A DNA stretch of 64,000 nt from Candidatus Zhuqueibacterota bacterium (GTDB taxonomy: Bacteria > Electryoneota > RPQS01), in assembly GCA_016214895.1 (NCBI GenBank), contig JACRMR010000012.1, forward strand, positions 297,142 through 361,141, written 5' to 3'. Of this stretch, positions 5,766-63,798 are shown piece after piece. A model generated the notes under the pieces. The model searched no databases and was not told where the DNA came from. It worked only from the letters and a program-made list of their open reading frames with translations. Position numbers and translations under genes: made by a program. The first letter of the stretch is position 1; each line of letters opens with the position of its first letter.

Positions 5766-5904
5766 CGGGCTGTTACCTCTCCGACGTTGATGAATTGATT
5801 TTCTCGAAACTGGGGATCACAGTCCGCGGCGTTTCCCCCGCCCGCGGCACTGCGCCGCCCGCGCATCACCACTGCTTCGCCCGCGGCGAAGCGAGTCCGT
5901 TCAC

Positions 5905-6453: not shown

Positions 6454-6471
6454 ATCTGGAATCGGTCCTCG

Positions 6472-7026: not shown

Positions 7027-7037
7027 GGGGGGCGCGG

Positions 7038-7664
7038 TTAGAAGTTGATTCCGGTCTTGGTGTCGCGATTGACCGCCGCCTTCTTCTTGGCGTCGGGATC
7101 CGCGGTCAGGCACTCAATCGAGAAGATCAAGGCATCCTGATCTTCGACGACCTTGCGCAGTGATTGATCGAAGCGAATTTCGTGGAGGCCGTGGCGAAAC
7201 TCGGGCGTCCCCTTGAGCAGCTCGATGAACTTCGATATGACTTCGAACTCCTTGATGTTGGAGTCAACCTGCGCGACCGCCTGAATCCTGAACACCTTGT
7301 TTTGGTAGTCCAAGCCGGTAACGGCCATGCCCGCCGGCAAGATCTCGGCCAGCTTCTCCAGCCGCCGAGCCCAGAGGAAGCGATCATTCTCCAGCTTGGC
7401 GAGTGAGGACACATCGTCTTTGGAAACCTTGGTGCCCTCACGCTTCAAGCTGTCAAGTTCGAATCGAATGCGCTCCAACTTCTGCTGCCGCGACTGCACG
7501 ACGTCGCGCATCGCCGCCGTCTGCGCCCAGGTCATCCCGCCGAGCACAACGAACACCAGGGTGAGCAAGCCCAACACCAGATAGGAACGCCGTTCCTGCT
7601 TGCGCTGCTTGAGGATGACCTCACCCTCACCCTTGTTCAGGTTAATAGTAAACTGTTTGACCAT
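7038..7664 (-). CDS. pilN: Type IV pilus assembly protein PilN
   Basis: 208 aa with a short cytoplasmic N-terminus, one TM (LVLGLLTLVFVVLGG) and a coiled-coil periplasmic domain. It lies immediately downstream of pilM. Confidence 0.7.
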   Translation of the reverse strand: MVKQFTINLNKGEGEVILKQRKQERRSYLVLGLLTLVFVVLGGMTWAQTAAMRDVVQSRQQKLERIRFELDSLKREGTKVSKDDVSSLAKLENDRFLWARRLEKLAEILPAGMAVTGLDYQNKVFRIQAVAQVDSNIKEFEVISKFIELLKGTPEFRHGLHEIRFDQSLRKVVEDQDALIFSIECLTADPDAKKKAAVNRDTKTGINF

Positions 7665-42402: not shown

Positions 42403-42475
42403 TCTCGCTTCGTGGTAAGTGTCAGAATCCGCTGCCGGTCTTCTCTACACGACAGCCCACACCGTCAGCTCATAT

Positions 42476-44581: not shown

Positions 44582-44808
44582 CCTGCGGCCCTCCCAAGCC
44601 CCTCGGATCATCATCCCTTCAAGAACGGCGACGAAATACGGCTCCGAATTGCAGGTTGCAACCCAGTTCGCGATTAGCCAATTCGGGGGCGATTGGGGCT
44701 GTCGCCGGGAACCCACAAGCTATCTAAATTACCGATTTCTGTGCATTTTGTCAAGCCAAACCGACCCCGATTTGGACGGGCACCGGATTTGCAAACTCGC
44801 CTCTGCAA

Positions 44809-47649: not shown

Positions 47650-50600
47650 ATGTTTTCGCTTGGCTCCCGATGTTCTTCCTTGCTCGCACTGCTGGCTACC
47701 CTGTTAGTCGCCGGCCTGGGCCTTGCCCAGAATCCCGGTGATGTGCTGATTTCGGAATCGATGTACGATGATACGGCCTCAACAGATGTCGAATGGGCGG
47801 AAATCTACAACACTACGGCTAACCCCATCGACATCTCCGGCTGGACGCTGCAGGACGCCCCTGCTTATCCCCCGGCGACCGAAGGTTCAATCCTGGTCCC
47901 GGCCGGCACCACTATCGCTGCCGGACAATACCTGGTCCTGTGCAAGGCCGCAATTCCCGAGTTCACGGGCGAAATCGTCTGCACGCAGAATTTCGGTTCA
48001 TGGGCACTCGGTAATTCCGGTGACAACCTCGCCCTCTATACGGGGAGCGGCACGCTCATTGATGGATCGTTGAGCGTCATTATCCCGGACTCATCGCTGA
48101 CGGGCGGAAACTCAACGGAGCGTTGCTCCTTCGCCATCAGCTACGATGTCGGGTCAAACTGGCATCAGTCCACCAATGTGTTCGCCACGACCGGCCGCTA
48201 CCGCCTCTGCACGCCCGGCGCACCGAATTCCGCCTGCGGGGCCAGCGATACCACGCCACCGACGCTCCTGAGCGCCGCGGCCACGACTGCTACCACCGTC
48301 GATCTGCTCTGGAATGAGTCGGTCGGGCTGGTGTCAGCGCAGACCGTGGCCAACTACGTCGTCAACAATGGCGTCGGCAATCCGCTGACCGCGACCCGCG
48401 ACGGAGCGAATCTCGCGCTGGTGCATCTGACGTTCAACGCGATGGCCAACAACACCTACTCGATCACCTGCAATAACGTTGCTGACGTGGCCGGAAATGT
48501 CTCCACGAATCAGATCGCTAATTTCACGGTGAATGTTACCGTCGCGCAGGGCGCTGTTGTGATCACGGAAGTGATGTACGATGATACGGCCAGCGGGACC
48601 AACCCCGATGTCGAATGGGTGGAGATTCATAACACCACCGCGTCGGCCATCGATTTATCGCTGTGGCGTCTGACCGACTACAGCGCCGTCCCGCCCACCG
48701 CGGAAGGCAATGTCGTGATTCCGGCCGGGACTTCGATTCCGGCGGATGGCTATCTCGTGCTTTCCAAAGTCGCGATGCCGGAAATCCCGAGCGCGATTGT
48801 CTGCGTTGACTCCGGATCACTCGGGCTGGGCAATTCCGGCGATAACCTCGCACTTTATACCGCGGACTTCGCGCAACTCGTGGATGGCTCGCTGACGGTC
48901 AACTACCCTGACCTCGCCCTGAACAACGGCGGTCACTCGATTGAGAAGTGCGATGTGAACGCGCCGTGGTCCGGCCTCGCCGCCGATTGGCATGAATCCA
49001 CCAATGTCTTCGGAACCGGACGATATCAGCTCTGCACGCCGGGCGCCGTCAATTCTCCCTGCCTCGGCGACACCACACGGCCCACGCTCGTGTCCGCGAC
49101 CGCGCTCAGCACGACGCTGATCGAAGTCGTCTTCAACGAAGCCCTGAACGAAGTCTCGGCGGAAACCGTGACAAACTACTCCGTGGACCTCGGCGTGGGC
49201 TCGCCCAGCACGGCAACGCTGCAGACCACCCCCACAACGGTCCGCCTGCTCTACGGCACCGCGTTGGCTCCCAATACGTACACCTTGACCGTCAATAACG
49301 TAGCGGACGTTGCGCTGAATGCGATCCTGCCCAACTCGCAAGTGTCGTTCACCGTCTCCGCTCCGCCGGAGAACCTCAAGTTCACCGAGTTCATGCCGAA
49401 TCCGGCGTTCGCGAGCACAGGCGACAGCCTCGGCGAATGGTTCGAGATCTATAATGCCGGGGCGACCACCGTGGATCTGACCGGGTGGATCATCGCCGAT
49501 AATTCCGGCAGCGATACCATTGAAGCCGGCACGATCAACCCCGGCCAGTATTTTGTGTTCTGCTCAAACGGCGACAGCGCAACGAACGGCGGTGTGCCGG
49601 AGAATTTCGACTATCGTTTCGCCACGTCCGGTTGGGGCCTGAGCCTGAGCAATACCGGCGAAACCATCTTCTTGCGCAACCCGGCGGGGACCAATGTCGC
49701 CACGGTCACATACACGACCGCATTCCATTGGGGCGCCGGCGTGAGCGCCCAATTGATCGATTTGAATTACAGCGGCGCCGTTGACACCATGTGGTGCGCC
49801 GGTTATCAGGCCTGGCCGGGCGCCAACAATGGCGACCTCGGCACGCCCGGAACCGCTACGGCATGTGCTCCGGTGCTCCCGCCGGATACGCTCACACTCT
49901 GCCAGGTCCGCGAGCAAGACACCTGCGGCGTCGCCACGCGGCTGAATACCCGCGTCGTCACGCATGGCGTCGTTACTTGGGTCGATTCGTGCGGCACAGA
50001 GGCGTTCGTCGAGAGCGGCGGCTGCGCGGTCCAGATCTTCGGCACCGCGGTTACGACCAATATGGTCGGGAATCCCCGTCCCCCCATGGTCGGCGACACC
50101 ATTGAAGTGTGGAGTTACATCACACAGTTCCGCGGCGTCACAGAATTCTCTACCTATACCGCCGTCGCGCCGGTGATCACCTATCTTGGTTCGGCTGCGG
50201 TCCCGGCACCGGTAGTGGTCGCGGCCTCGGCAGTCGCAACCGTCGTCGATGACTGCGGACCCGAACTGTACGAATCCCGTATTATTTCCGTGCTCGGCGC
50301 GACCTTCCTGAATGCAGGCGGTACGTTCGCACCCGGTGACACAACGTTCCCGGCCGTGGTCGGAACGGACACGGTCCTCTACTACGTCGATAGTTGCGAT
50401 GTGTCTATCCTCGGAACGACGATTCCTGCCGGCGCTGTGAACTTGCGAGGTGCGCTCGGACAACATGATCTGACGACGCCGTGCCTGTGCGGCGGCTATC
50501 AGATCGTCTTCGCCGGAGGCAGCGCTTTCGAAGCCGCGCAGTGCCCGGATCCTACGCAATTCACCGTCAATCGTGACGACAGCCTGGCCACGACGGTTAC

Positions 50601-50796
50601 CTTGCGCTGGACCCCCGGCCTCGGTGCAGCATGCAATACGTACAAGGTCTATGCATCCACGAACGGCAGCGCTGTTTTCCCCGCCACATACACCCTCGTC
50701 GCGACGGTCGTTGCACCAACGCCGCCGGATTGCTTCTATACCGATCCGAGCGCACTGGCGCCGATTCGCTTCTATCATGTGACGGCTGACAACTAA
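47650..50796 (+). CDS. Large secreted protein with three lamin-tail domains (LTD), Ig-like (SbsA/Big_5-type) domains and a C-terminal FN3-like region
   Basis: It begins with a signal peptide. Three LTD-like units are present (VLISESMYDDTASTDVEWAEIYNTTANPIDISGWTLQD...LGNSGDNLALY; VVITEVMYDDTASGTNPDVEWVEIHNTTASAIDLSLWRLTD...LGNSGDNLALY; LKFTEFMPNPAFASTGDSLGEWFEIYNAGATTVDLTGWIIAD), each followed by a segment of the type TTPPTLLSA..TT.VDLLWNE. The length is 1048 aa. Confidence 0.75.
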   Translation: MFSLGSRCSSLLALLATLLVAGLGLAQNPGDVLISESMYDDTASTDVEWAEIYNTTANPIDISGWTLQDAPAYPPATEGSILVPAGTTIAAGQYLVLCKAAIPEFTGEIVCTQNFGSWALGNSGDNLALYTGSGTLIDGSLSVIIPDSSLTGGNSTERCSFAISYDVGSNWHQSTNVFATTGRYRLCTPGAPNSACGASDTTPPTLLSAAATTATTVDLLWNESVGLVSAQTVANYVVNNGVGNPLTATRDGANLALVHLTFNAMANNTYSITCNNVADVAGNVSTNQIANFTVNVTVAQGAVVITEVMYDDTASGTNPDVEWVEIHNTTASAIDLSLWRLTDYSAVPPTAEGNVVIPAGTSIPADGYLVLSKVAMPEIPSAIVCVDSGSLGLGNSGDNLALYTADFAQLVDGSLTVNYPDLALNNGGHSIEKCDVNAPWSGLAADWHESTNVFGTGRYQLCTPGAVNSPCLGDTTRPTLVSATALSTTLIEVVFNEALNEVSAETVTNYSVDLGVGSPSTATLQTTPTTVRLLYGTALAPNTYTLTVNNVADVALNAILPNSQVSFTVSAPPENLKFTEFMPNPAFASTGDSLGEWFEIYNAGATTVDLTGWIIADNSGSDTIEAGTINPGQYFVFCSNGDSATNGGVPENFDYRFATSGWGLSLSNTGETIFLRNPAGTNVATVTYTTAFHWGAGVSAQLIDLNYSGAVDTMWCAGYQAWPGANNGDLGTPGTATACAPVLPPDTLTLCQVREQDTCGVATRLNTRVVTHGVVTWVDSCGTEAFVESGGCAVQIFGTAVTTNMVGNPRPPMVGDTIEVWSYITQFRGVTEFSTYTAVAPVITYLGSAAVPAPVVVAASAVATVVDDCGPELYESRIISVLGATFLNAGGTFAPGDTTFPAVVGTDTVLYYVDSCDVSILGTTIPAGAVNLRGALGQHDLTTPCLCGGYQIVFAGGSAFEAAQCPDPTQFTVNRDDSLATTVTLRWTPGLGAACNTYKVYASTNGSAVFPATYTLVATVVAPTPPDCFYTDPSALAPIRFYHVTADN
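47741..49700 (+). repeat. Intragenic tandem coding repeats (LTD units, ~0.8-kb period, partially conserved at the nucleotide level)
   Basis: Compare 47755-47870 with 48568-48690 (gatgtacgatgatacggcc...gatgtcgaatggg.ggagat...aacac.ac.gc). Confidence 0.55.
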
Positions 50797-51004: not shown

Positions 51005-51442
51005 ATGGCCGACAATCTGATCGAGAATTTCCTCCTCAATCAGGCCCCCGGCAACGCCGTCCTTAAGAAGACGCTGGATGCGAACGCCCTGCGGCAACGC
51101 ACACACGCGCAGAATATCGCCAATGCTGAGACGCCCGGGTACCGGCGGCTGGCCGTGGACTTCGAACAGCAGCTCAAGCAGGTGCTGGACGACGACATCG
51201 ACGGCATGGCACAGACCAATCCGCGCCACATGAACGGAAACGGCGCGCGCGTCGAGCTTGAGGCCCTTGCCGCAACGACGCGCACGGAACCGCTCGATCC
51301 GAACAGCCCGGGCATCAACGGCGTAAATATCGATCTCGAAATGGCCGAGATGGCCGAAACCCAGCTCCGCTATCTCACGTCGCTGGAACTTCTGAAACGC
51401 CGATATGCCGGCATCAAGGCCGCGATCAAAGGCCAACCGTAA
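51005..51442 (+). CDS. flgB: Flagellar basal-body rod protein FlgB homolog (orphan)
   Basis: Rod-protein N-terminal signature AQNIANAETPGYRR (consensus NIANANTPGY), a length of 145 aa, and a heptad-rich C-terminus. No flgC/fliE is adjacent. Confidence 0.7.
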   Translation: MADNLIENFLLNQAPGNAVLKKTLDANALRQRTHAQNIANAETPGYRRLAVDFEQQLKQVLDDDIDGMAQTNPRHMNGNGARVELEALAATTRTEPLDPNSPGINGVNIDLEMAEMAETQLRYLTSLELLKRRYAGIKAAIKGQP

Positions 51443-51461
51443 TCGCAAGGCAGATCAAGAC

Positions 51462-51496
51462 AAACGGGACAGCAGCGCTGTCCCGTTTGCATTTTC
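51462..51496. terminator. Bidirectional intrinsic terminator between flgB and convergent tyrA
   Basis: aaacgggacagc-agc-gctgtcccgttt followed by gcattttcg. Confidence 0.6.
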
Positions 51497-51514
51497 GATC
51501 CCCTGCTATTGCCG

Positions 51515-52705
51515 CTAAGGTCTAAGCCGCGCCGCGAAACCGTCTTCTTTCAAGATCTCAACGGCGCGCCGCGCATCGAGACGCGATTCCACCGTGACGT
51601 GCAGCGATCCGCCACGACCCTCGCGAACGAATAATACTCCAATGTCGCGAATGTTGATACGATGCGTAGCCAGCAGACTGGCAATCCTGGCTATGGCACC
51701 CGGACGGTCCGAAACCGTCACCGAGATCTCGCAATTCGCGTCCCAGTCGCCCGGCCGCTCCCGTAACAGCTTGCGCTGGAACTCGGCCGCGCTCATCCAC
51801 AGATCGTGCACGCGACCCGCCGCGATCGCCGCCTCAAATTCCTCCAGCGTCCGGCGAAGCTCCGCCAAACCCGCCAGCAGCGCGGATTGATTGGAACGGA
51901 GCGCCCCCTCCCACATTTCCGGCGGCAGCGCGGCCAAGGCCGTCGAGGACTGAAACGACCCCGTGGCGAGCTTCGACAACAGCGGCTCCGTTGACGATCG
52001 CATCGCCAGCCAATGCGACATTGCCAGCGCGACCATCAGCGGCACGTGCGTAGTCAGCGCGACAATCTGATCGTGACGATCCGGTTCCAGCGGCAGCGGG
52101 TACGCGCCCAGCATGCGAATCCACCAAAACAGCGTCTCGCGCGATTCCGCCGGAAGGTCAGGACGCGATGTCACCAACCAGTAAGCGTTCTCGAACAAGT
52201 TCGCATCGGCATTCGCGATCCCGGTGCGGTCCTTCCCCGCCAGCGGGTGTCCGCCAATATAGTGCGCGGACGACGGCGTCAGCTCGGCAACGCGCAGTAA
52301 TTCGGATTTCGTCGGACAGGTGTCCGTCACAATCGCCCCGGCCTTCGCTCGGGTCAATATGTCCGGCAGCAACCGTGCCGATGTTTCCACGGGTACGCAC
52401 AGGACAATCAGATCCGCATTGCCGATCGCCTCGGAAAGCTCGACCACTCCCCGATCGATGGCACCGCGGGCGAGCGCTTCATCCAAAACCTCCTGTCGAT
52501 CGCAGCCGATCACACTCCCGCCGTGCTCCATCGCCTTCATGCGCAATCCGATCGAGCCCCCGATCAACCCGACCCCAACGATCACAATCCGATCAAACTC
52601 GCGGCTAATTAGCGCCAGCGGATCGGGCAGAGTTAGCCCGTCTAACTCCACATGTTCCACTGCTTCGGGTTCGCCGATTCCGCTTTTCATCTCGTGATCG
52701 GTCAA
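51515..52705 (-). CDS. tyrA: Prephenate dehydrogenase (TyrA) with C-terminal ACT domain
   Basis: Rossmann GxGxxG (IVIVGVGLIGGSIG), the catalytic motif YIGGHPLAGKD, and a C-terminal ACT domain (ISVTVSDRPGAIARIASLLATHRINIRDIGV). Confidence 0.85.
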   Translation of the reverse strand: MTDHEMKSGIGEPEAVEHVELDGLTLPDPLALISREFDRIVIVGVGLIGGSIGLRMKAMEHGGSVIGCDRQEVLDEALARGAIDRGVVELSEAIGNADLIVLCVPVETSARLLPDILTRAKAGAIVTDTCPTKSELLRVAELTPSSAHYIGGHPLAGKDRTGIANADANLFENAYWLVTSRPDLPAESRETLFWWIRMLGAYPLPLEPDRHDQIVALTTHVPLMVALAMSHWLAMRSSTEPLLSKLATGSFQSSTALAALPPEMWEGALRSNQSALLAGLAELRRTLEEFEAAIAAGRVHDLWMSAAEFQRKLLRERPGDWDANCEISVTVSDRPGAIARIASLLATHRINIRDIGVLFVREGRGGSLHVTVESRLDARRAVEILKEDGFAARLRP

Positions 52706-52735
52706 CGCTCGCGATCCTCAGTCTGCGCCCACACC

Positions 52736-53827
52736 TTACCGAATTTCCGTGATCTTAAGCCCGGCGTTGCCGAGCGCCGTCGCCGCTCGCGATCTGTCCG
52801 CCGGTGAATTCAAGGTCAAACAGAACGTCCCCGCCGCCGCATCGTGCATCTTGTCCAGACTGGCGACGGTGATTCTGCACTCCGCCAAAATCTGCGCCGC
52901 CTTTTCCAACACCTTTGTGTCTCCGCCAGCCGCCAGCACGATCTCCCGTGACGCCTCCTGCGCCACTTCCGGATTGACCAGTTTGCCGCTGGCCCCCGCC
53001 AACTGCTCCAAGTGCTGCTCGAGACTCCCCGTGGCGACAGCTTCACGCAACGTTGCCAACTGCTTCAACAGTTGATCCAGCGCCTGCAAAACCGGTTCGC
53101 GATTATCCGCCACATCATGCGCCCATCCGGAAAACTGCATCTGTTGCAGCTCGCCCATCTGCTCCGCCAGCCACGCCCCCATGCTCGCGGAACTGACCGG
53201 CATGCCTCGCGCCGGATCCAACACATATTCGACCGCGGCCATCATGGCCAACCGCGGCGCCTGATTGATGTCCGCCAGCATTCGGTCGTGCGCTTGCGGA
53301 CTCATCGCCACCACGTTCGCTCCCAGCCGCTTCATCGCCTCCTGCAACTGCGAAAACGCATCCAGATCCGGCTTCCCGCGCGGCGTCAGGATGACGGTCT
53401 TATGCTCAAAGTAATACTGACTCGATTTCTCCAACTCGATCTGCACGTCCGCATCCCCGGCCAACCGAAAACCGACGTAGCTGACGTCTGTACGTTTCGA
53501 TTCGGCGAAGACCCGGTTCACGTCACCCTTGACCCGAGTCATCTCCGAGATGATCGTCCCCGGCTCGACGCAGGCCAAAACATCGCACAGTGAAATGCCC
53601 AGGGTCGCGGCTTCCCGTGACAAGATGACCAGACCCGCGCCCTTTACGGCCCGGGCAAGCTCCGGGGTTCCGTCGGTCACCACGCGAAGTTTCCAGGCCT
53701 GCTGGACTGTCGCATTGTCGGCCACCCCGACGATGCCGCCCTGGTACCCGGTCCGCTTCATGCCCAAGGCGAAACTGCCGACCATGCCGTCCAGGCCTAT
53801 GAAGCACATGCGATTACATAGTGCCAT
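52736..53827 (-). CDS. TyrA-fold/ACT paralog with degenerate NAD-binding and catalytic motifs (putative pseudo-dehydrogenase)
   Basis: It is collinear with TyrA, but GxGxxG becomes IGLDGMVGS and the HPLAG motif becomes YVGFRLAGD (no His). It retains an ACT-like C-terminus. Confidence 0.55.
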   Translation of the reverse strand: MALCNRMCFIGLDGMVGSFALGMKRTGYQGGIVGVADNATVQQAWKLRVVTDGTPELARAVKGAGLVILSREAATLGISLCDVLACVEPGTIISEMTRVKGDVNRVFAESKRTDVSYVGFRLAGDADVQIELEKSSQYYFEHKTVILTPRGKPDLDAFSQLQEAMKRLGANVVAMSPQAHDRMLADINQAPRLAMMAAVEYVLDPARGMPVSSASMGAWLAEQMGELQQMQFSGWAHDVADNREPVLQALDQLLKQLATLREAVATGSLEQHLEQLAGASGKLVNPEVAQEASREIVLAAGGDTKVLEKAAQILAECRITVASLDKMHDAAAGTFCLTLNSPADRSRAATALGNAGLKITEIR

Positions 53828-54043
53828 ACCTGCCTACTCCACGGTTGTTCTCAAGCCGAAATTATCCGACCCAAGATGCGCAATTCCCGCGCCACCCATC
53901 CCACCGTATCGTAAATATAACAAATCATAAGGAGGAGCGCAAGGGAATCGACCCCATCAGACTCACTGATCCTCGCCAGACCCAAAAGACAAGGCGGACA
54001 ACTGCCCGCCTTACCGTCAAACTGCCCGCACTATCCCCCCGCC

Positions 54044-55546
54044 TCAGCCGACCGGTACGTCCGCACCCCGCAGGAGTTCCTTGGCCCGGATGACCTGTTC
54101 CCGCTTGGTCAGGGTAACCCAAAGCGTCAGCCCACTTGGCGTTTCCTCGCGATCAATCCGCTCAATTTCGATCCGATTCTGCGTCAGGAGCTGAGCCGCC
54201 GTCTGCAACGTGTGGACGTCGTGCCCGCAGGAAATTGAAAACGTCGGCGAAAGATCCTGCTCAGCCTCGACGCTCGCCGGGGCGAGATCCGAACTGCCGG
54301 TTCCCACCGCCGAATCGCCGAAACCAGCGCTCAGCGAGCCATAGTCGTCTGAAACCCAGCCGTGGTGCGCGTCGGGTCGTTGTTCCGCGGAGGTCTCCGG
54401 CGCCGAAACGGACGGTGCTGAATCCTGAGATTCGTGTGCAGCGGCCAACGTCGAGATCTCACCGCGCCCGGTGCGTTCCGGCTCCACGGCCTGCGCCCGC
54501 AGGATATCCTCGACGGTGCGCCGCGTGTTTTCAATCAGCTCATACAACGATTGGACACTGACCCCTTGGCGAACCGGCATCCGCTTGACGACCTTGATCG
54601 CGCTCTCGAGCATCTCAACCAACGCTTCCGGCGAAGCCTCCATCGCGGCCGGTGGCAGCGCTGCCAGTCGCGCTCCCGCCGGGTTGGTCAAACTCTTCAG
54701 TTCATTTGCCTGACGGTGAGTGCTCGAGGCAATCTCGTGCATCTTGTCCTGCGTCAGCTCACCGATCAGAGCCGCCAGCTGCTGTTGGCAGCCCTCGAGT
54801 GCCGCCAAGACGTTGGACTTGTTGTGAAACAAGTTGGACGACCAAATCTCCGAAGCCGACCGTCCCATCGCCGCGAAGTCGCCAAAGAGCTGGTAGCTCT
54901 CGGCCACCGTGTCGGTGCCCGTCGCATCCAGCTTGTTCGTGAGGTAGCGCATGAAAGGAATCCGCACCAATTGCGGAAGCTGCACGAATTCCGCCATCTG
55001 CCGGTCATGAAGCTGCGGACTCGTCGCGATCACCGTGGCGCCGCAGTGCCGAAACATGTCCGATAACAGGCTAAAGACATTTAGGTCCTCAATCGTGAGC
55101 GGCGATAGCGACACCCGTTGGCCGTTGAAGAAATCGGCCGAGGCCCCGTCGAGCGCTTCGCCCCAATCCAACGAGCCGCCCAGGGCTACGCTCACATAGT
55201 GGAAATCCGTCCGGTCGAGTTCTCTAACTACCCGCGACACTTCTGTCATGGTTCGCCCATGGCCGCAGATCACCGCACGCGGATCACACGAAATGATGAC
55301 CTCCCGTAAATTCCACGGAGAGCCGTTCTCCCCCGTTCCCAGCAACAGAATGTCGGAACCGTGGATTCCCTCCAGAAAGCTATCTACGCAGGAGTCCGCG
55401 ACGCCGCTGCTCACCCACTGCTGGCCGACCTCCGCGCCCGCCACACAGATGACCTCGACCCCCGGTGAATATTGCCGGATGGCCAGGGCGAGGGTTCCCG
55501 CCCAGTGATCGGGTCCAATTACGCAAACTCGCGTAAACCTTAGCAT
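54044..55546 (-). CDS. TyrA-fold/ACT paralog with degenerate motifs and a long low-complexity linker (putative pseudo-dehydrogenase)
   Basis: The N-terminus VCVIGPDHWAGTLALAI (GxDxxxG), with YVSVALGGS replacing HPLAG. ADFFNGQRVSLSPLT aligns to ANLFENAYWLVT of TyrA. An acidic/Ser-rich linker precedes a C-terminal ACT-like domain. Confidence 0.5.
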   Translation of the reverse strand: MLRFTRVCVIGPDHWAGTLALAIRQYSPGVEVICVAGAEVGQQWVSSGVADSCVDSFLEGIHGSDILLLGTGENGSPWNLREVIISCDPRAVICGHGRTMTEVSRVVRELDRTDFHYVSVALGGSLDWGEALDGASADFFNGQRVSLSPLTIEDLNVFSLLSDMFRHCGATVIATSPQLHDRQMAEFVQLPQLVRIPFMRYLTNKLDATGTDTVAESYQLFGDFAAMGRSASEIWSSNLFHNKSNVLAALEGCQQQLAALIGELTQDKMHEIASSTHRQANELKSLTNPAGARLAALPPAAMEASPEALVEMLESAIKVVKRMPVRQGVSVQSLYELIENTRRTVEDILRAQAVEPERTGRGEISTLAAAHESQDSAPSVSAPETSAEQRPDAHHGWVSDDYGSLSAGFGDSAVGTGSSDLAPASVEAEQDLSPTFSISCGHDVHTLQTAAQLLTQNRIEIERIDREETPSGLTLWVTLTKREQVIRAKELLRGADVPVG

Positions 55547-55780
55547 TGACTACTCCTTACAGATTTTATTGAACACAGACGATCCGACTATTGCAAATGC
55601 AATACCCGTTGCTATGCGACCGGACCACGACATCGGCAGCGCCACCACGAAACATTGAGTCGTCGTGGGCCGAGTTCACGACGGCCGTTGCTTCGCTCGT
55701 CAGACGCGGGACGAAAAAAGACGACTGTTTCCAGTCGTCCAATCAGCTTCGCCAGCCCCCGTCGATTCCAGTCGATCTAT

Positions 55781-56206
55781 CTACTTCGCTCGATAGTCCG
55801 CCAGGCATGTCTCGAGCGTCGTCCACGGCAAACTCGCGCACTTCACTCGCACAGGAAGCTTCGACACGCCGGCGAGAGCTTCGATATCGCCAAGGTCAAC
55901 CGTCGTCGGTGGCTCCCCATCGCGCAAAAAATCGCGAACCGCCGCAATCCAAACCTCCAGCTCCGCCATCGTCTTGCCTTGCACGGCCTCCGTCAGCATC
56001 GACGCCGACGCCGTCGAGATCGCGCAACCCTTGCCGTCAAAGGAAATCTCAACCAGCCGGTCGCCGTCGAACCGCAGGTCCAACACCAATTCGTCACCGC
56101 AAAGCGGATTCAGGCCTTCCGCGCTGACTGTCGGATCCGTCAACCGCCCCCGATACCGCGGCAGCCGATAGTGATCCAGCAGAATGTCGCTGTAAAGATC
56201 AGGCAA
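55781..56206 (-). CDS. sufU: SUF Fe-S cluster assembly scaffold SufU (NifU/IscU-like)
   Basis: LNPLCGDEL...GKGCAISTASASML...KCASLPW conserved Cys ligands, and a length of 141 aa. Confidence 0.85.
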   Translation of the reverse strand: MPDLYSDILLDHYRLPRYRGRLTDPTVSAEGLNPLCGDELVLDLRFDGDRLVEISFDGKGCAISTASASMLTEAVQGKTMAELEVWIAAVRDFLRDGEPPTTVDLGDIEALAGVSKLPVRVKCASLPWTTLETCLADYRAK

Positions 56207-57422
56207 CGGAAAGCACCTGTCTTACTTTGCGAACCGCGTCCACTAACAGATCAATCTCTGCCTCGGTGTTGTACAGATAAAAACTGGCGCGCGCTGTCGC
56301 GACCACGCCCAACCAACGCATCAGCGGCTGAGCGCAATGGTGACCGGCGCGAATCGCAATCCCCTCGCGATCCAACAGGCCCGCCGCGTCGTGCGCATGC
56401 ACACCGTCAATATTAAACGTCACCATGGACGACCGCTCCAGTGCCGGGCCGTACACCGTTACCCCCGGTGTCGCGGTCAACGCGTCGTAAGCATAGGTGG
56501 ACAGATGATAATCGTGCGCGTGAATCCAATCCATCCCGATCACGTCGAGATAGCGAATCGCCTCCGCCAGACCTACGGCCTCCACAATCGGCGGAGTTCC
56601 CGCCTCAAACTTGTAAGGCAATTCATTCCACGTCGAGTGATCGAGAAACACCTCGCGAATCATCTCCCCGCCCGTCAGGAACGGATCCATGTCCTCCAGA
56701 ATCTCCGGCTTGCCCCACAGGACTCCGATCCCGGTCGGACCCAGCATCTTGTGCCCGGAAAAGGCGTAAAAATCCGCGTCAATCTCCGTAATGTCCACCG
56801 GCATATGTGGTACCGCTTGCGCGCCGTCGACCAGCACCCGCGCCCCCACGCGGTGAGCAAGCTCCGTAATCTCGCGAACCGGGTTGATCGTACCCAGGAC
56901 ATTCGATACATGCGTCAGTGCCACGAGCGCGACCGAACCGTCCAGCAACTTCCGGCCCGCATCCATGTCCAGCGTCCCGTCTTCGCGCAGCGGCCAAAAG
57001 CGCAATTCCGCACCCACGGCCTTCGCCACGATTTGCCACGGGACCAAATTCGCGTGATGTTCGAGCGGCGTCAGCAGAATCGCCTGCCCATGCTTGATGA
57101 AACGCCGACCAAAGGAGTGCGCCACCAGATTGATCGACTCCGTCGTCCCGCGCGTGAAGATCACGCCCCGCGAGTCCGGCGCCTTAATGAAATCCCGCAC
57201 GGTCCCACGCGCCGCTTCATAATCCGCCGTTGCGCGCTCACCCAGTGTATGCACGCCGCGGTGAACATTCGAATATCGCGATTCGCAAAATCGACAATGC
57301 GAGTCCAGCACCGCCATCGGCTTCTGCGAACTCGCCGCGCTGTCCAAATATACCAATGGCCGGCCGTTGACCTTCACATTCAGTATCGGAAAGTCCCGGC
57401 GAATCTCGGCAACCGTCTTCAT
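56199..57422 (-). CDS. sufS: Cysteine desulfurase SufS
   Basis: Class V aminotransferase, group II desulfurase pattern (YLDSAASSQKP...SGHKMLGPTGIGVLWG...RAGHHCAQPL). The start is taken at MKTVAEIRRDFPIL. Confidence 0.9.
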   Translation of the reverse strand: MKTVAEIRRDFPILNVKVNGRPLVYLDSAASSQKPMAVLDSHCRFCESRYSNVHRGVHTLGERATADYEAARGTVRDFIKAPDSRGVIFTRGTTESINLVAHSFGRRFIKHGQAILLTPLEHHANLVPWQIVAKAVGAELRFWPLREDGTLDMDAGRKLLDGSVALVALTHVSNVLGTINPVREITELAHRVGARVLVDGAQAVPHMPVDITEIDADFYAFSGHKMLGPTGIGVLWGKPEILEDMDPFLTGGEMIREVFLDHSTWNELPYKFEAGTPPIVEAVGLAEAIRYLDVIGMDWIHAHDYHLSTYAYDALTATPGVTVYGPALERSSMVTFNIDGVHAHDAAGLLDREGIAIRAGHHCAQPLMRWLGVVATARASFYLYNTEAEIDLLVDAVRKVRQVLSVA

Positions 57423-57468
57423 AGTGCGATCCCGCCCCTGACGTGTGTGCTCTGCACACAACGCTTGT

Positions 57469-57837
57469 TCATTTCGTCCCGCCGTCCGCCGGTGCCGCCG
57501 CGGGAATCAAGACCAGAACTTCGTCTCCCCGCACCTCCACCGCAAACGTTTGCAGTGGCTCCGTCGCCGGCAGCGACAGCGCCTCGCCCGTTGCCAAATC
57601 AAACATCGCCCCGTGCCGCGGGCACTCCACGTGGCACCCCTCCAACCAACCGTCAGCCAGCGATTCATCCTCGTGCGTGCAGTGACTGCTGGTCGCAAAC
57701 CACTGGCCGTCGCTCCGAAAAACGACCAACTGCAGCGGTCCAACGTTGAACGACTTGCCGCCGTCCCGCTTGAATTCAGCTTTCGAACAAATCCGCACCC
57801 ACTCCCCGTCCGACCGACCAACCTTCGCAGTATCCAA
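57469..57837 (-). CDS. Rieske [2Fe-2S] ferredoxin-like protein in suf cluster
   Basis: CTHEDESL ... CPRHGAMF, i.e. the Rieske CxH-(15-17)-CxxH motif, and a length of 122 aa. Confidence 0.8.
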   Translation of the reverse strand: MDTAKVGRSDGEWVRICSKAEFKRDGGKSFNVGPLQLVVFRSDGQWFATSSHCTHEDESLADGWLEGCHVECPRHGAMFDLATGEALSLPATEPLQTFAVEVRGDEVLVLIPAAAPADGGTK

Positions 57838-57985
57838 GTGGCTCCTCTACGCCGTGAAGTTCTTGTGCGACCGACGCCGAATTGCTACTGACCCGCTTCC
57901 GGCCTACTTATTGCAAATCGGATAAAAGACGTCAGATTCTATCTATCCACCAACAGGGGTCACCAAAGTTCTCGCGAGGTAATCG

Positions 57986-58555
57986 ATGACAAAGTCCAGA
58001 ATCCTGATCCTGCTCATGACCGCCCTGGCGCTCGCCACCGGCTGTTCCGACGACGAAGCAACTACCACCATCCCGCCAGCGGTTCCCAGTGATGATCAAC
58101 TTCTCGCCGGGCCGGAATCAGGCAAGCAATTTGTCCGCTGGAATTCCGTCGGACTGGAACGTGTTCACGCCAGTGGTGCGACGGTCGAAGGCTGGTGCTA
58201 TCCCGCTCAGGAAACCAATCTCGAAATCCTGCTCATGGCCGGATATTCCGTCCCGGTTGGCGCGACACCGGGCGACTCGCTTCACTGTTCGCTCACCGTC
58301 GCGGACACCACCTATTCGCAAACCGACTTCCTGCCCGAAGGCATTACGTGGAACGACTCGGTGATCTACTGGTGTGACACCTCGTGCGTGCACATCCCCC
58401 CCGGCAGCAGTGCCGCGGACATCTGTTTCTATTGGTACAATCCGGCTTCCGGTGAATTCAAGCAAATCACGACCGCCGTCGTGGAAACGCATTGGGTGGC
58501 TAAGACGCTGCATTTCTCCCGCTACATTCTCGGCCAAAAACGCTCCGCAAACTGA
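57986..58555 (+). CDS. Hypothetical lipoprotein (opposite strand, interrupts suf cluster)
   Basis: Lipoprotein signal MTKSRILILLMTALALATGC. The antisense alternative ORF is composition-poor. Confidence 0.45.
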   Translation: MTKSRILILLMTALALATGCSDDEATTTIPPAVPSDDQLLAGPESGKQFVRWNSVGLERVHASGATVEGWCYPAQETNLEILLMAGYSVPVGATPGDSLHCSLTVADTTYSQTDFLPEGITWNDSVIYWCDTSCVHIPPGSSAADICFYWYNPASGEFKQITTAVVETHWVAKTLHFSRYILGQKRSAN

Positions 58556-58615
58556 GCGCGGCCGCCGCGAAAACGGAGATCGTACTCACGCGGGACCTCA
58601 CGGTCCCGCGGCTGT

Positions 58616-59812
58616 TTAGAGTCGCACCGCCTCGCCGATGGAAGCCATCACGGCGTCGCGCCAGCGCTCTTGAACCGTTCCAACCGGGACCTTCTGAATG
58701 ACCTCTTCGGCAAATCCGGTCGCGATCACGCGCAGGGCCTGACCCCGCGACAGCCCGCGACTTTGCAGGTAGAACAGCTGGTCCCGGTTCAAGGACCCCA
58801 TCGACGCGCCATGCGTACAGCGCACATCGTCCGCAATGATCTCGAGCTTCGGAATGGCGTCCGCGTGCGTTCCCGGTTCGAGTAGCAGGTTGCGGCACTG
58901 TTGGTACGCGTCGGTCTTCTGCGACTGCTGCGGTACGGAGATCAGTCCCTGATAAACCGAATGCGAGCGTCCTGACAGCAGCGTCTTGAACGTCAGGTCC
59001 GACTTGCACCGCGGCGCGCCATGATACTGATGAGTGCGATGATCCGCTCGCGCATCGCCGCTGCCCGCGAACAGCCCCTGAATCCGCCCCGACGAGTTCG
59101 GCCCCAACAACATTAGTTCCATCCGCGCCACATGCCAGGCCGCGCCCTGCGTGAAGGAGTACCAGGTCACAGCGGAATCCTGCGCCACCTGAACTCGCGC
59201 GCGGCGGTAGAGCGCAGCGCGGGCGCCGCACCAATCCTCCTGCACATAGTTAAGACGCGCGCCCGCTTCCACCATGATCTCGGTCCGCCCCACCGTTACC
59301 GCATCGTCCGACGCCGGCAGCCAGCGATCAACAATCGTTGCCTCAGCGTCACGCTCCACAACGACCAAGGTCGTGAACGTCGATAGCCCCGGGCCGGAGC
59401 TGCGCTGCTGGAGTTCAATCGTCTCGCCCGACCAAGCCCGCGGAACCCTGATGATCACGGGAGCACGGCAGAAGGCTTTGTGATAGTACAGGAATTTGGC
59501 GTCGTAGTCGTCACCGGGAATCGTCAGCAGTTGCCGCATAGATTCCGCGCCTGCTGACGCAAGCGGCGACGCCAACGCGGCGGGCAGATGCGTCGTCGTT
59601 TCGTGAAGGGAGGTCGCCGCCTCGACCTGTTCGGTCCGCGGCCACGGGAACTGGTCGGGATCGGTCTTTCGCCAATCCTCTTCGAGCCGTGACGGGATCG
59701 CTGCCGAGCGGGCCTGCTCCAAGGCATGCAACCGCTGCTCAGGGGTCCACAGCGGGTGCGGGATCGACTCTATAAACGCGCTGCTGCGGGGATGCGACGT
59801 CGTCTCAGCCAA
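58616..59812 (-). CDS. sufD: Fe-S cluster assembly protein SufD
   Basis: SufB/SufD family beta-helix pattern, a length of 398 aa, and a start overlapping the sufB stop. Confidence 0.8.
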
Positions 59813-61214
59813 CGGAACCCTCCATCTGCAATTGGATCAGCCGGTTCATCTCGAGCGCGTACTCCATCGGCAACTCCTTGACCACCGGCTCGATAAATCC
59901 GCGCACAATTAACGTCATCGCGTCGGCCTCCGAAATGCCGCGACTCATCAGATAGAAGATCTGCTCGTCGCCGATCTTCGAGACCGTTGCCTCGTGACCC
60001 AGCTCGACCTTGTCCTCCTGAATATTCATGTACGGATACGTGTCGCTGCGGCTGTGATCGTCAAGCAATAATGCATCGCAGCTCACGTTCGACTTCGAGT
60101 TCTCCGCGCCTTTGCTCACCTCCACGAGGCCGCGATAAGACGTCCGCCCGCCGCCGCGCGAAATCGATTTCGACACGATGACCGAGGTCGTCTCCGGCGC
60201 GTGATGAATCACCTTCGCGCCCGCCTCCGTATGCATCCCCGGCCCCGCGTAGGCCACCGACAGAATGTCCGCGCGCGCATGCCGCCCCATCATGTAAACC
60301 GACGGATACTTCATTGTCACCTTCGAACCGAGATTGCAATCAACCCACTCCATCGTCGCATCTTCTTCCGCCAGCGTACGCTTCGTCACGAGATTGTACA
60401 CGTTCTTCGACCAGTTCTGAATCGTGGTGTACCGCACCCGCGAGTGCTTCTTCGCGTAGATCTCCACCACCGCGCTGTGCAGCGAATCCGAAGAATACAC
60501 CGGCGCCGTGCAGCCCTCCACGTAGTGCACGTTCGAGCCTTCGTCCGCGATGATCAGCGTGCGCTCAAACTGCCCGACATTCTTCGCGTTGATCCGGAAG
60601 TAGGCCTGCAGCGGAATCGTCACATGCACGCCCTTCGGCACATAGATGAAACTGCCGCCCGACCAGACCGCCGTATTCAGCGCCGCGAGCTTATTATCGC
60701 CCGCCGGAATCAACTTGTTGAAATACTCCTGAAACAGATCGGGATACTCGCGCAAGCCGGAATCGGTGTCAAGAAAGATGACTCCCAGTTTCGACCACTC
60801 TTTCTGCAGAGAGTGGTACACGACTTCCGAATCATACTGCGCACCGACACCGGCCAGAAATTTCTTCTCGGCCTCGGGAATCCCCAGCTTGTCGTAAGTG
60901 TCCCGAATCTCTTCCGGTACCGCGTCCCAGTTGGATTCGACGCGTTCGTTTGACCGCACGTAGTAGTGAATATCGTCGTAGTTGATCCCCGATAAGTCCG
61001 GCCCCCAGTTCGGAGACGCCTTCCGCACGAAATAGTCGAGGCCCTTCAGACGCAGTTTGCGCATCCAGTCCGGTTCGCTCTTCATCTCGGAGATCTCTTC
61101 GACCACCTTGCGCGACAACCCTTTGGGCAGCTTCACCGTCGACTTATCTTCGTCGTGAAAACCGTAGCGGTCGTAGTTGTCCAGATCGAGCTCGAACTTC
61201 TTGTCCTTTTCCAT
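59805..61214 (-). CDS. sufB: Fe-S cluster assembly protein SufB
   Basis: Highly conserved SufB sequence (…[34 protein letters not shown]…), and a length of 469 aa. Confidence 0.9.
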
Positions 61215-61215
61215 C

Positions 61216-62259
61216 CTATCCTCCCTGCAACACAGCCAGCAATTCGCTTGCCCGGCTGTCCGCCGTGTATCGGTCTCGCAAGATCAGTAACGCGCGGTCG
61301 GCTAAGCGATCGCGCGCAGTGCCGTCGCTTAGAAGTTGCTTCATCGCCTCATACCATTCCTCCGGTGCGGACGCGTAGCGGATCGAGTCGCGATCCGCAA
61401 AATCCTGCACGGGGAAACCGATCGGACTCGCCACCGCGGGCACGCCACGGCTCATGTACACCAGCGCCTTGTAGTTCATCTTGGCGCGACACCATTCCGT
61501 ATCATCGAGTGGCGCAAGTCCCAGCGTGAATTGCGGCACGAATTCCGCCTCCGCTGACCGACTCCACGGAATGAACCTGTGCCGGTAGCGCGGCGGCGGG
61601 TTCATCAGACCTGACGTCATGATCCACACCTCAAGCTCGGGGAGCTCTGCTTGCAGCCGCAGAATGGAGTCCTCAAGCGGCCGTAAGAACCGCTGGTTTT
61701 CCGGTGCCCCCACCCACCCGACCACTGCGGGATGCCGCGGCACCGACGGCGCTGCCGCTACGGTCTCGACAATCGTCGGAATGACGTGCACGTAGGCGTT
61801 TAGTCCGGTCGCGTAGCGGCGAATGGCCGCGCCGCTGGCCACGACCGCGGATGCGCGGCGAAGCGAGCGATTGACGCGCTCACGTTCCGCGCTGCGCCAG
61901 ACCGCGTTCGGCAGATCAAACGGCGACGCCAGATAGATCGCGTCGTCCAGATCATATACGATGCGCTTCCGCAGCGCTCGGGCGAGTCCCAACTTGATTC
62001 GCCCACCGCTGAACTTCTGATGCCAGATGGCATCCGCGCGGAATACGGTGAACAGCGCGCGGAGCGGAAGCAACTCCAGCCAGAGTCGCGAGCGACCGCG
62101 CGGACGTTCCGTTCCGCGTTCGTACTTGTGAAACGTGTAACTGTCAACGAACACGGCCACGCCCGCGGCTGCCAGCGCCGGAAGATACGCGTACATCCGC
62201 GTCCGCGCGCTGCCGTTGTCCAGTCCTCCTCCGGGAATCATCAGCACGCGCAGCGTCAT
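61216..62259 (-). CDS. Glycosyltransferase family 1 (GT4-type)
   Basis: Start taken at [12 protein letters not shown], which overlaps the GT2 stop (ATGA). It has a C-terminal GT1 Rossmann region with the E-x7-E-like context ([13 protein letters not shown]...). The track ORF to 62613 is over-extended. Confidence 0.65.
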
Positions 62260-63203
62260 ACTGTCAGCTCCGCCAGCATCGCGCGCATCTGCGAAGCGGT
62301 CACGCGGGCCGTTCGCCGCAGCGCTCGCCGACGCCGCCATGCCTCCGGCAACCACCGCAGGAACGCAATCCAGCTCGCCAGCACCGCTCCGCATTGACGC
62401 GCCCGGATATGATGCGGGATGCCGAACACGTCTTTCTGTAAACGGTAGAGAATCTCCCGCACGGACATCCAGCCCGGCAGGCCGTTCGCGCAGGTCAGCA
62501 ACCGGTTCCGGCGATAGCGAATGAACCGCGCGCGCGGCAGGCGTGCCTGTGTGGGTGAACGATGATGCCGCACACGCGCCTGTGGCACGAGCCGAAAGCT
62601 CCAATCGAACCACCGGCAGCGCAATGCCAAATCGACGTCATCCCACTCGGCAAAGAAGTTCGGATCGAGACCGCCCACTTCGTCAAATGCCTCGCGTCGA
62701 AAGAGCGCGCAGGCAAGACAGACGCCAAATACTACCGTGGATGCGCTCGGCGCCAAGTCCGCCGACTCCCCGTGCAGTCCGTCGGCCGCCGTGAAGTGCC
62801 GATGCAATACGATACCCGCGCTGTCCACGCATCGGGGGTCCGCCGCGTTCACCAACAGCGGCTGGACCGCGGCCACCCGCTGGCCGGCCTGCAGCAAAGC
62901 GTCCACCAACGATGGCAACGAGCCCGGCTCCAGCACCGTGTCATTATTCAGAAGCAACAACAGCTCGCCGCGAGCGACCGCGACGCCGTGATTGATCGCA
63001 CCGGTAAACCCGGTATTGGTCGCTAACACTTCGCAGTGTACCGTCGGAAACTGCGCGCTCACGTAAGCGACGCTGCCGTCCGTCGAACCGTTATCGACGA
63101 GCAGAACTTCGAGCGGATCCCTGCATTCCTGACTGAGCACGGAGGTCAGACACGGCCCGAGGTATTCGAGACCGTTGAAATTGGGAATGATCACCGAGAT
63201 CAT
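62256..63203 (-). CDS. Glycosyltransferase family 2
   Basis: MISVIIPNFNGLEYLGPCLTSVLSQ...LLVDNGSTDGS...LLLLLNNDTV, i.e. the GT-A DxD-containing N-terminal domain. Confidence 0.85.
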   Translation of the reverse strand: MISVIIPNFNGLEYLGPCLTSVLSQECRDPLEVLLVDNGSTDGSVAYVSAQFPTVHCEVLATNTGFTGAINHGVAVARGELLLLLNNDTVLEPGSLPSLVDALLQAGQRVAAVQPLLVNAADPRCVDSAGIVLHRHFTAADGLHGESADLAPSASTVVFGVCLACALFRREAFDEVGGLDPNFFAEWDDVDLALRCRWFDWSFRLVPQARVRHHRSPTQARLPRARFIRYRRNRLLTCANGLPGWMSVREILYRLQKDVFGIPHHIRARQCGAVLASWIAFLRWLPEAWRRRRALRRTARVTASQMRAMLAELTV

Positions 63204-63339: not shown

Positions 63340-63798
63340 CTACTTTACCGTCACAATGTCGGCCTTGGTCGTGCCCACGATCGCCAACAGTTCGCCCTGC
63401 TCCGGCTTCGGGACCTTGAATTCGTCGAGGGTCTTCACAAAGTCCACGACCATCGCGTCCCATTCCTTGTTTGCAATATTCAAATGCGCGTGGGACTCCT
63501 TCATCGAGCGGCCGGTGTAAACCTGCGGACCGCCTGTCACCTGACACACCAGTGCCGTAACCTGAAACTTGAGTCCAGCCTTTGGCACGCGATCGCGCGC
63601 CTCTTTTATCGCCGGATTCGCGTTCAAGACATCATTCACCAGCAGTTTCTCGATGAATACGTCCACCACCGAGGCGATATTGTACACACCACCGAGGCGG
63701 TCATAGAGCGACGGCGCGGCAGGTTCCGCCGCGCGAGCAGCCGTCGATACCAGCATGACAGCCATCATTCCGGTCAGAAGACTCTGCAGACTCTTCAT
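63340..63798 (-). CDS. Signal-peptide-bearing truncated hemoglobin (2/2 Hb, group I/trHbN-like)
   Basis: Signal peptide MKSLQSLLTGMMAVMLVSTAARA, then SLYDRLGGVYNIASVVDVFIEKLL...TGGPQVYTGRSMKESHAHLNI, which aligns with the trHbN B/E/F-helix signatures (IYDKIGG...GGPEPYTGAPMKQVH). The RBS AAGGGAG is upstream. A TAG stop is followed in-frame by a conserved tail (see findings). Confidence 0.75.
   Translation of the reverse strand: MKSLQSLLTGMMAVMLVSTAARAAEPAAPSLYDRLGGVYNIASVVDVFIEKLLVNDVLNANPAIKEARDRVPKAGLKFQVTALVCQVTGGPQVYTGRSMKESHAHLNIANKEWDAMVVDFVKTLDEFKVPKPEQGELLAIVGTTKADIVTVK

Follow-up and report, generated by a model that had tools for sequence, protein, structure and literature searches.

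Three consecutive genes, which we call A, B and C in the order of their strand, lie between positions 51515 and 55546 of the DNA studied here (the window, 64,000 nucleotides (nt) in all), and encode proteins related to prephenate dehydrogenase (TyrA). Our check of the open reading frames (ORFs) of the window found exactly three intact ORFs in this interval, all on the minus strand (Table 1). Their 100%-identical counterparts in the database belong to a candidate division KSB1 bacterium. An earlier note on this DNA had described them as three same-strand genes with a TyrA fold and a C-terminal ACT domain; its coordinates proved exact, and Pfam/NCBIfam, hhalign and AlphaFold2 (AF2) agree on the assignment. 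On the same strand a SUF cluster lies upstream of A, and a flgB-like gene downstream is convergent with C. We note that all functional statements on A, B and C made below are computational predictions.

Table 1. Coordinates and properties of the features at the TyrA paralog locus
Feature	Position	Strand	Description
Terminator-like hairpin after sufU	55719-55740	-	9-bp stem then TTTTTT; between the SUF cluster and A
Gene A	54044-55546	-	500 aa; TyrA-like N-domain and dimerization domain, helical insert, disordered acidic linker, ACT-like end
A GPDHWAG, residues 11-17	55496-55516	-	degenerate P-loop; Gly-to-Asp change as in B
A acidic Ser/Ala-rich linker, residues 354-431	54254-54487	-	predicted disordered, pLDDT 25-32; length varies among homologs
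A ACT-like domain, residues 433-500	54047-54250	-	AF2 pLDDT 82-90, beta-alpha-beta-beta-alpha
Terminator-like hairpin after A	53988-54015	-	12-bp stem then TTTT; 29 nt past the stop of A; between A and B-C
Gene B	52736-53827	-	363 aa; TyrA-ACT architecture over the full length, NAD motif and catalytic residues missing
B GLDGMVG, residues 11-17	53777-53797	-	degenerate P-loop, beta1-alphaA turn; second Gly is Asp, third Gly is Val
B ISEMTRVK, residues 93-100	53527-53550	-	canonical VTDVGSTK; active-site Ser is Arg
B GFRLAGD, residues 119-125	53453-53473	-	catalytic His is Arg (GFR aligned with GGH)
B ACT-like domain, residues 291-363	52739-52957	-	DRPG loop replaced by GGDTK
B-C spacer	52706-52735	-	30 nt; GAGGA 9 nt before the TTG of C
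Gene C	51515-52705	-	396 aa; TTG start preceded by GAGGA; TyrA-ACT with GxGxxG and catalytic His
C glycine motif GVGLIGG, residues 44-50	52556-52576	-	intact dinucleotide-binding motif; G/G/G in every C-family member with a complete N-terminus
C TDTCPTK, residues 127-133	52307-52327	-	canonical TDVGSTK; active-site Ser (A. aeolicus S126) is Pro
C GGHPLAG, residues 151-157	52235-52255	-	catalytic His kept (E. coli H197 / A. aeolicus H147); His in 63/63 C-family proteins
C KLATGSFQSSTALAALP, residues 245-261	51923-51973	-	canonical LAAGGFRDxTRIASSxP; substrate-carboxylate Arg is Ala, preceding Asp is Ser
C ACT domain with DRPG ligand loop, residues 323-396	51518-51739	-	Pfam ACT
Palindromic hairpin between C and the flgB-like gene	51461-51489	.	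13-bp stem

In Pfam and NCBIfam the three proteins match no models other than those of TyrA, with full-length alignments. The Pfam scores are highest in C (PDH_N 80.5 bits, E = 1.2e-22; PDH_C 49.5 bits, E = 5.7e-13); in B, PDH_N is above the cut-off (40.6 bits, E = 2.3e-10) and PDH_C below it (19.0 bits), and in A, PDH_C is above (24.5 bits) and PDH_N below (21.6 bits). The NCBIfam prephenate dehydrogenase alignments cover the full length of A, B and C with scores far below the equivalog cut-offs. C aligns with the TyrA-ACT protein of B. anthracis (PDB 5uyy) at E = 1e-52 over its residues 38-388. The AF2 model of B (predicted local distance difference test score, pLDDT, 83.9) has the full-length 5uyy structure as its best PDB match (E = 1e-22, 379 columns); TyrA enzymes are on top of its structural matches, with PYCR, IRED and KARI far behind. 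The model of A is confident in the N-domain and at the C-terminus.

The C-terminal domain is matched directly by the Pfam ACT model in C only (31.6 bits, E = 1.4e-7, residues 327-387), and not in A or B. Nevertheless, hhalign relates the C-termini of B (probability 97.8%, E = 1.2e-12) and A (96.2%, E = 2.6e-9) to the TyrA ACT domain, and the AF2 models of both proteins confidently show a beta-alpha-beta-beta-alpha(-beta) arrangement in this region; in B the strands are at residues 295-299, 321-326, 334-339 and 359-361, and the helices at 304-316 and 342-354. At the position of the ACT ligand loop (beta1-alpha1), C reads DRPGAIA, B GGDTKVL and A CGHDVHTL, as placed by alignment only. In neither B nor A did Pfam find an output domain or a DNA-binding domain.

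The key positions of the TyrA family were compared in 281 aligned proteins, i.e. 63 of the C family, 23 of the B family, 5 of the A family and 190 other TyrA proteins. The residue roles were taken from the literature (PMC2954222 and a B. anthracis preprint, bioRxiv 10.1101/2025.10.30.685691): the active-site Ser is A. aeolicus S126 / H. influenzae S179, the catalytic His is E. coli H197 / A. aeolicus H147 / H. influenzae H200, and the Arg that binds the substrate carboxylate is E. coli R294 / H. influenzae R297 / B. anthracis R235, placed by alignment to 5uyy. Among the other TyrA proteins the GxGxxG motif is intact in about 186, and the Ser, His and Arg are present in 185, 188 and 188, respectively. 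The C family has the intact glycine motif and the catalytic His throughout, and neither the Ser nor the Arg in any member. In the B family the second Gly is Asp in 20 of 22 proteins and Asn in the other 2, the third is never Gly, the Ser position is Arg in 18, and the canonical Arg is found in 2. The A family has Asp for the second Gly in all 4 members that have an N-terminus, Arg for the Ser in 5/5, and neither His nor Arg. It is conspicuous that the active-site Ser (Pro in C, Arg in B and A) and the substrate-carboxylate Arg are missing from all three genes of the window. The observation that C alone of the three keeps GxGxxG and the catalytic His, which had been made from the sequence beforehand, is thus borne out, but C is not a canonical TyrA either, as it lacks the Ser and the Arg.

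C is placed by its sequence in a TyrA clade specific to the Calditrichota/KSB1 lineage. About 62 close homologs are at least 49% identical to it (P0019-P0080), the closest (P0020) at 63%. Ser is found at its canonical position in none of the 63 family members (Pro 44, Gly 15, Ala 3, Cys 1), as against 185 of the 190 other TyrA proteins; the Arg position, Arg in 188 of the 190, is Arg in 0/63 (Ala or Ser in 52), and the Asp that precedes it is kept in 1/63 as against 178/190. All 63 proteins retain GxGxxG, the catalytic His and the second His. The closest ordinary TyrA-ACT proteins, which are 36-39% identical to C, have kept the Ser, Arg, Asp, His and GxGxxG. His, Ser and Arg are conserved in the TyrA proteins of all kingdoms, and exchanges of the latter two are costly: kcat falls 15-fold and Km rises 10-fold in S126A, and Km is greatly raised in R294Q (PMC2954222). 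In B. anthracis, R235 binds the prephenate carboxylate (bioRxiv 10.1101/2025.10.30.685691). C lacks two of the three universally conserved active-site residues and is hence non-canonical. C is the only one of the three copies that is predicted to be NAD(P)+-competent, because GxGxxG, the catalytic His and the HD relay are kept, and its family may bind the substrate in a different mode, or use a different substrate, since the conserved Ser and Arg are absent throughout.

The C family has two further conserved regions that are not found in ordinary TyrA-ACT proteins. One is an N-terminal extension with a TLPDPLEL motif (residues 1-38 of C; 52590-52705), the other an invariant RERPGDWD linker before the ACT domain (residues 315-322; 51740-51763). 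The equivalent linker enters the active site in B. anthracis TyrA.

B has orthologs (P0002-P0015 and P0139-P0146) whose identity to it ranges from 65% (P0002) down to about 24-30%, with a length of 359-366 aa; an exhaustive search with the B profile gave nine clusters at the 50% level with E values of 6e-60 or lower. The 15 closest orthologs (41-65% identity) share 59 invariant columns. ISEMTRVK is among the most conserved motifs of the family, its S94-K100 part being invariant in these 15 proteins. The AF2 model places a strand at residues 6-10 and a helix at 14-25 around the degenerate P-loop. At the position of the catalytic His the 23 family members have Arg (17), His (4), Gln (1) or Asn (1). 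The four with His are of the Calditrichota type and read GFH where the B of the window reads GFR, so the His has been replaced by Arg and not by Phe, as had been assumed in the earlier note; the motif peptides given there (GLDGMVG and GFRLAGD in B, GPDHWAG and SVALGGS in A) are all present. The dN/dS ratio (nonsynonymous to synonymous substitution rates) of B, roughly estimated by the Nei-Gojobori method, is 0.19-0.32, which is indicative only as dS is saturated (proportion of synonymous differences, pS, 0.61-0.83). These data argue for purifying selection on B.

In the neighbour-joining tree A and B fall into a single clade, and they share two derived states, i.e. the change of the second Gly to Asp and that of the active-site Ser to Arg. 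Moreover, A has a better match to the B profile (1.2e-39) than ordinary TyrA proteins have. The two sets of motif losses had been proposed to be independent; because A and B share derived residues and cluster together in both the profile scores and the tree, the losses were inherited. A thus branches off from the B lineage and has acquired a helical insert as well as a disordered linker. This linker is the acidic, Ser/Ala-rich one seen earlier in the 500-aa member, and its pLDDT is below 50. The catalytic-His motif of A is SVALGGS, with Ala for the His. At least four further members of the A family are known (P0018, P0147, P0148 and P0159). A and P0018 are 59% identical, a divergence similar to that of B from P0002 and of C from P0020 (63%).

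The B-C pair follows the SUF cluster directly in at least nine related loci (L001-L007, L009 and L010), which belong to KSB1- and Calditrichota-labelled metagenome-assembled genomes (MAGs). L001/L002 and L003/L004 are grouped, L005 is on the same contig as L008, and L006 and L007 are of the Calditrichota type. The profile search of genome contigs gave only 3 loci, so the taxonomic breadth comes from metagenome and MAG loci. In all cases where the locus includes B, C follows it directly after a very short spacer, measured as 1-54 nt in seven other loci. The synteny asked about in the earlier note thus exists for B and C in KSB1- and Calditrichota-type MAGs, and A is not part of this conserved unit. 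A-like genes follow sufU in two other contigs.

The proposed operon of three genes is also doubtful, because terminator-like hairpins are found after sufU and after A, i.e. on both sides of A. The transcription units are probably SUF, then A, then B-C, and a three-gene operon is improbable, although we note that the hairpins come from a consensus scan only, with 6 sites found as compared to 4.4 expected. The short spacing of B and C suggests co-transcription and coupled translation, and the palindromic hairpin beyond C is likely to be a bidirectional terminator that closes the B-C unit. A sigma-70 promoter scan of the locus gave no match, the sigma-70 consensus being uninformative for this phylum, and an Rfam scan of 51300-56300 revealed no leader and no riboswitch. 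The only Rfam match in that interval, CRISPR-DR9 at 51925-51956 (plus strand) inside gene C, has 23 bits and an E value of 0.096, far below the gathering score, and is almost certainly due to chance.

The explanation we favour, and to which we give about an even chance, is that B is a non-catalytic regulatory subunit that pairs with C; A may do likewise. KSB1-type and Calditrichota-type sequences are separated by the same deep split in the trees of B and of C, which dates the duplication before that split. According to this explanation, an old tandem duplication would have produced B, which would then have lost the glycine motif (second Gly to Asp) and the Ser (to Arg), with His changing to Arg in the KSB1 branch, and would have kept the whole TyrA-ACT architecture under purifying selection. 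C alone would bind NAD(P)+ and polarise the 4-OH group of the substrate, i.e. it would be the tyrosine-branch dehydrogenase of the clade, with a substrate pocket that is presumably non-canonical given the family-wide absence of Ser and Arg. B and C would form an asymmetric heterodimer with one catalytic site and a mixed ACT pair, in which B would tune the activity or its feedback. B would be accessory, as some lineages have no B at the locus. A, apparently transcribed separately, is probably another non-catalytic partner or a sensor.

C is the most likely partner of B because an intertwined dimer is the only form in which the TyrA C-domain folds and because B and C appear to be co-transcribed at 1-54 nt; as A and B keep the dimerization domain, they should dimerise with something. 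The helical bundles of TyrA dimers intertwine, with about 11,000 A2 buried, and each active site is lined by helices from the adjacent monomer (PMC2954222). The homodimer of B. anthracis TyrA-ACT is itself asymmetric, with one NAD+ per dimer and an ACT pair that leans on one subunit (bioRxiv 10.1101/2025.10.30.685691), and inactive paralogs as partners are known from the trypanosomatid prozymes (PMC3663545, PMC5201418). We also considered an obligate complex in which B supplies the missing Arg of C in trans. In many B proteins an Arg or Lys does sit one residue ahead of the canonical Arg, but not in the B of the window; as, in addition, C occurs without B in some lineages, the idea was rejected.

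Several observations weigh against the pairing of B with C. In L017 and L018 a C-family gene comes directly after sufU with no B, only 170-258 nt lying between them (L017 3743-4000, L018 3831-4000). The C proteins of these loci have identical C-family motifs and are nested among B-associated C proteins in the tree. B has thus been lost or relocated at least twice from the locus, a copy elsewhere in those genomes being possible, and it follows that C is independent of an adjacent B and that B is accessory rather than essential. B also evolves much faster than C (46% and 82% identity, respectively, between L006 and L007). The dimerization and ACT domains are the least conserved parts of B: the mean pairwise identity is 51% in the N-domain, 39% in ACT and 31% in the dimerization domain, as compared to 55% (dimerization) and 65% (ACT) in C. 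The N-domain holds 27 of 33 invariant columns, including those of ISEMTRVK, YVGFR, ILTPRGKxDL and AMSPQAHD. This pattern would be explained by ligand binding in a remodelled pocket no less well than by a role purely as dimer partner. Furthermore, the putative loss of NAD binding in B is read from its motif only, and one A-like gene, P0147 (507 aa; L012/L013 6001-7524), stands alone in an unrelated neighbourhood.

The genes around P0147 encode FUR, a catalase-peroxidase (katG), a pyridine-nucleotide disulfide oxidoreductase, DsrC, DsrE and an MFS transporter. This iron/sulfur/oxidative stress setting recalls the SUF neighbourhood of the other copies.

The loss of Ser and Arg in C might be thought to be tied to having B. 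This was rejected, as all 63 C-family proteins lack both residues, B-less loci included; moreover, the C-like protein of a sister lineage keeps the Arg with or without an upstream B-like copy. That copy, P0150 (L014, 1581-2705), retains GxGxxG and the catalytic His, is otherwise diverged, and lies 11 nt upstream of the C-like gene that retains the Arg; close relatives of this C-like gene (L015, L016) have no such upstream copy. P0150 may represent an early stage of degeneration.

A possible, if tentative, extension of the pairing of B and C is a split TyrA of the Calditrichota/KSB1 lineage, in which C would have a rebuilt pocket lacking the Ser and the Arg and would pair with one or both of the catalytically dead B and A, whose old active sites (Gly to Asp, Ser and His to Arg) would serve as NAD-free allosteric pockets that sense an aromatic-pathway metabolite. 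If true, these bacteria would have a 'prozyme/sensor' system in the biosynthesis of aromatic amino acids, possibly with a new TyrA substrate-binding mode or substrate.

Somewhat more doubtful is that B, and also A, are autonomous homodimeric sensors or buffers in which the old cleft has become a cationic, NAD-free pocket (Ser and His to Arg, Gly to Asp). The pocket and the ACT-like domain would bind an aromatic-pathway metabolite, and the output would reach C or another target through transient contacts. The conserved surroundings of the old active site in B, its poorly conserved dimerization domain, its dispensability at the locus in some lineages and the solitary P0147 would all agree with such a role. 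On the other hand, B and A have no output or DNA-binding domain, the DRPG ligand loop is conserved in neither, and B, where present at the locus, adjoins C upstream with a very short spacer.

We consider it unlikely that B or A, or both, are neofunctionalised enzymes that carry out NAD-independent chemistry, or use another cofactor or substrate, on the TyrA scaffold. B does conserve new motifs at the former catalytic positions (TRVK, GFR, TPRGK), the Calditrichota-type B keeps the catalytic His, and P0150 of the sister lineage keeps that His together with GxGxxG in an otherwise diverged protein. However, the old catalytic positions are mixed within the B family (Arg, His, Ser or Ala at the Ser position; Arg, His, Gln or Asn at the His position), which is unusual for a fixed catalytic apparatus, and our literature search found no precedent for a cofactor-free enzyme with a TyrA fold.

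It is highly improbable that A and B are decaying duplicates without function, and the conservation effectively refutes it. B evolves faster than C and the neighbouring suf genes and was lost from the locus in some lineages. Nevertheless, A and B are full-length ORFs without frameshifts, and B orthologs persist over a deep divergence (29% identity between the B of the window and that of L006) with little change in length and many invariant residues. The rough dN/dS is well below 1, A and P0018 have diverged about as far as B and C have from their closest relatives, and the AF2 model of B is confident. The earlier view of A and B as retained paralogs is therefore upheld by intact ORFs, orthologs, synteny and dN/dS. 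Least credible of all is a membership of A and B in another Rossmann-fold family that has an intact nucleotide motif of its own, a possibility raised in the earlier note and suggested by nothing but the weak Pfam scores of A: it is refuted by sequence, profile and structure matches whose best hits are all TyrA, full-length in the case of the models, and by an Asp in the beta1-alphaA turn where glycine is required, with no alternative glycine-rich motif.

A and B are probably non-catalytic partner or sensor proteins, and several known systems can be compared with them. Like TyrAp-ACT (B. anthracis TyrA, PDB 5uyy/6u60), A, B and C share a Rossmann-type N-domain, a helical dimerization domain and a C-terminal ACT or ACT-like domain. 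In contrast to it, A and B lack GxGxxG and the catalytic His, Ser and Arg, and C lacks the Ser and the Arg (R235); furthermore, the B. anthracis protein is a homodimer of the product of a single gene, whereas here two or three diverged paralogs are present. PapC-type TyrA (4-amino-4-deoxyprephenate dehydrogenase) keeps the nucleotide-binding site, while A and B have lost the glycine motif as well as the His. PapC resembles them in the absence of the otherwise invariant His (E. coli H197), but is an active dehydrogenase on the 4-amino substrate in antibiotic pathways (PMC1173090); A and B adjoin a TyrA gene, with no secondary-metabolite cluster. A 2005 survey of the TyrA family noted only PapC as lacking the invariant His (PMC1173090).

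A further analogy is with the trypanosomatid AdoMetDC, DHS and PRMT1 prozymes, where a dead paralog is kept beside the catalytic paralog of an obligately oligomeric enzyme. The 'active' subunit of trypanosomatid DHS is itself impaired (PMC3663545), which resembles a C without two conserved residues. B is, like the prozymes, a dead paralog retained under selection, judging by its motif loss, conservation and dN/dS below 1, where 'dead' is deduced from the sequence. The trypanosomatid prozymes, however, are eukaryotic and their heteromers and activation have been proven biochemically, whereas complex formation and activation are putative for B and C; moreover, C occurs without B in some relatives, so a strict dependence as in the prozyme systems is unlikely. 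In bacteria, Pseudomonas ATCase with its inactive pseudo-dihydroorotase is likewise a biosynthetic enzyme with an enzyme-derived inactive subunit (PMC7053772). There, the pseudo-dihydroorotase comes from another enzyme family and is required for activity, whereas B is a paralog of the same enzyme and seemingly dispensable.

TyrA is a textbook committed-step enzyme, and here a whole uncultured lineage carries a TyrA without two of the His, Ser and Arg. Beside it are conserved paralogs without any of the three and without the cofactor motif, of which no description was found for the TyrA family. In agreement with the earlier note, which knew of no TyrA system of this kind, our literature search turned up no publication that describes non-catalytic paralogs of TyrA. 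Should C pair with B or A, a bacterial enzyme that was homodimeric and already asymmetric would have become, after duplication, a heteromer of catalytic and regulatory subunits. Public records label the A-type and B-type proteins 'prephenate dehydrogenase', so pathway reconstructions of these MAGs would over-count TyrA.

As regards the surroundings, no other genes of the aromatic amino-acid pathway were found near the TyrA paralogs in the window. The SUF cluster (55781-61214) consists of sufB, sufD, a Rieske ferredoxin gene, sufS and sufU; sufC is not adjacent. Upstream of sufB there is a 465-aa ORF without a Pfam match (61216-62613, minus strand). This arrangement, with the embedded Rieske gene and the upstream ORF, is kept in all related loci. 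A functional tie between the TyrA paralogs and the SUF cluster was considered and rejected in favour of what is probably a conserved neighbourhood, as terminator-like hairpins and gaps of 140-360 nt lie between them. In L001/L002 the region between sufU and B-C (5330-7461) contains four tandem paralogs of about 150 aa, Cys-rich and with signal peptides, that have no Pfam match.

On the other side of C are the small flgB-like gene (51005-51442, plus strand) and a gene for a secreted protein of 1048 aa (47650-50796, plus strand), whose orthologs in related loci show LTD and Big_5 domains. Both are syntenic with B-C across the clade, and their orientation relative to B-C flips among lineages. Elsewhere in the window (32341-33831, 34027-36423, 40432-44716 and 63340-63798) there are genes for sigma-54, Lon protease, two Por-secretion-tail (T9SS) surface proteins and a truncated-globin-like protein.

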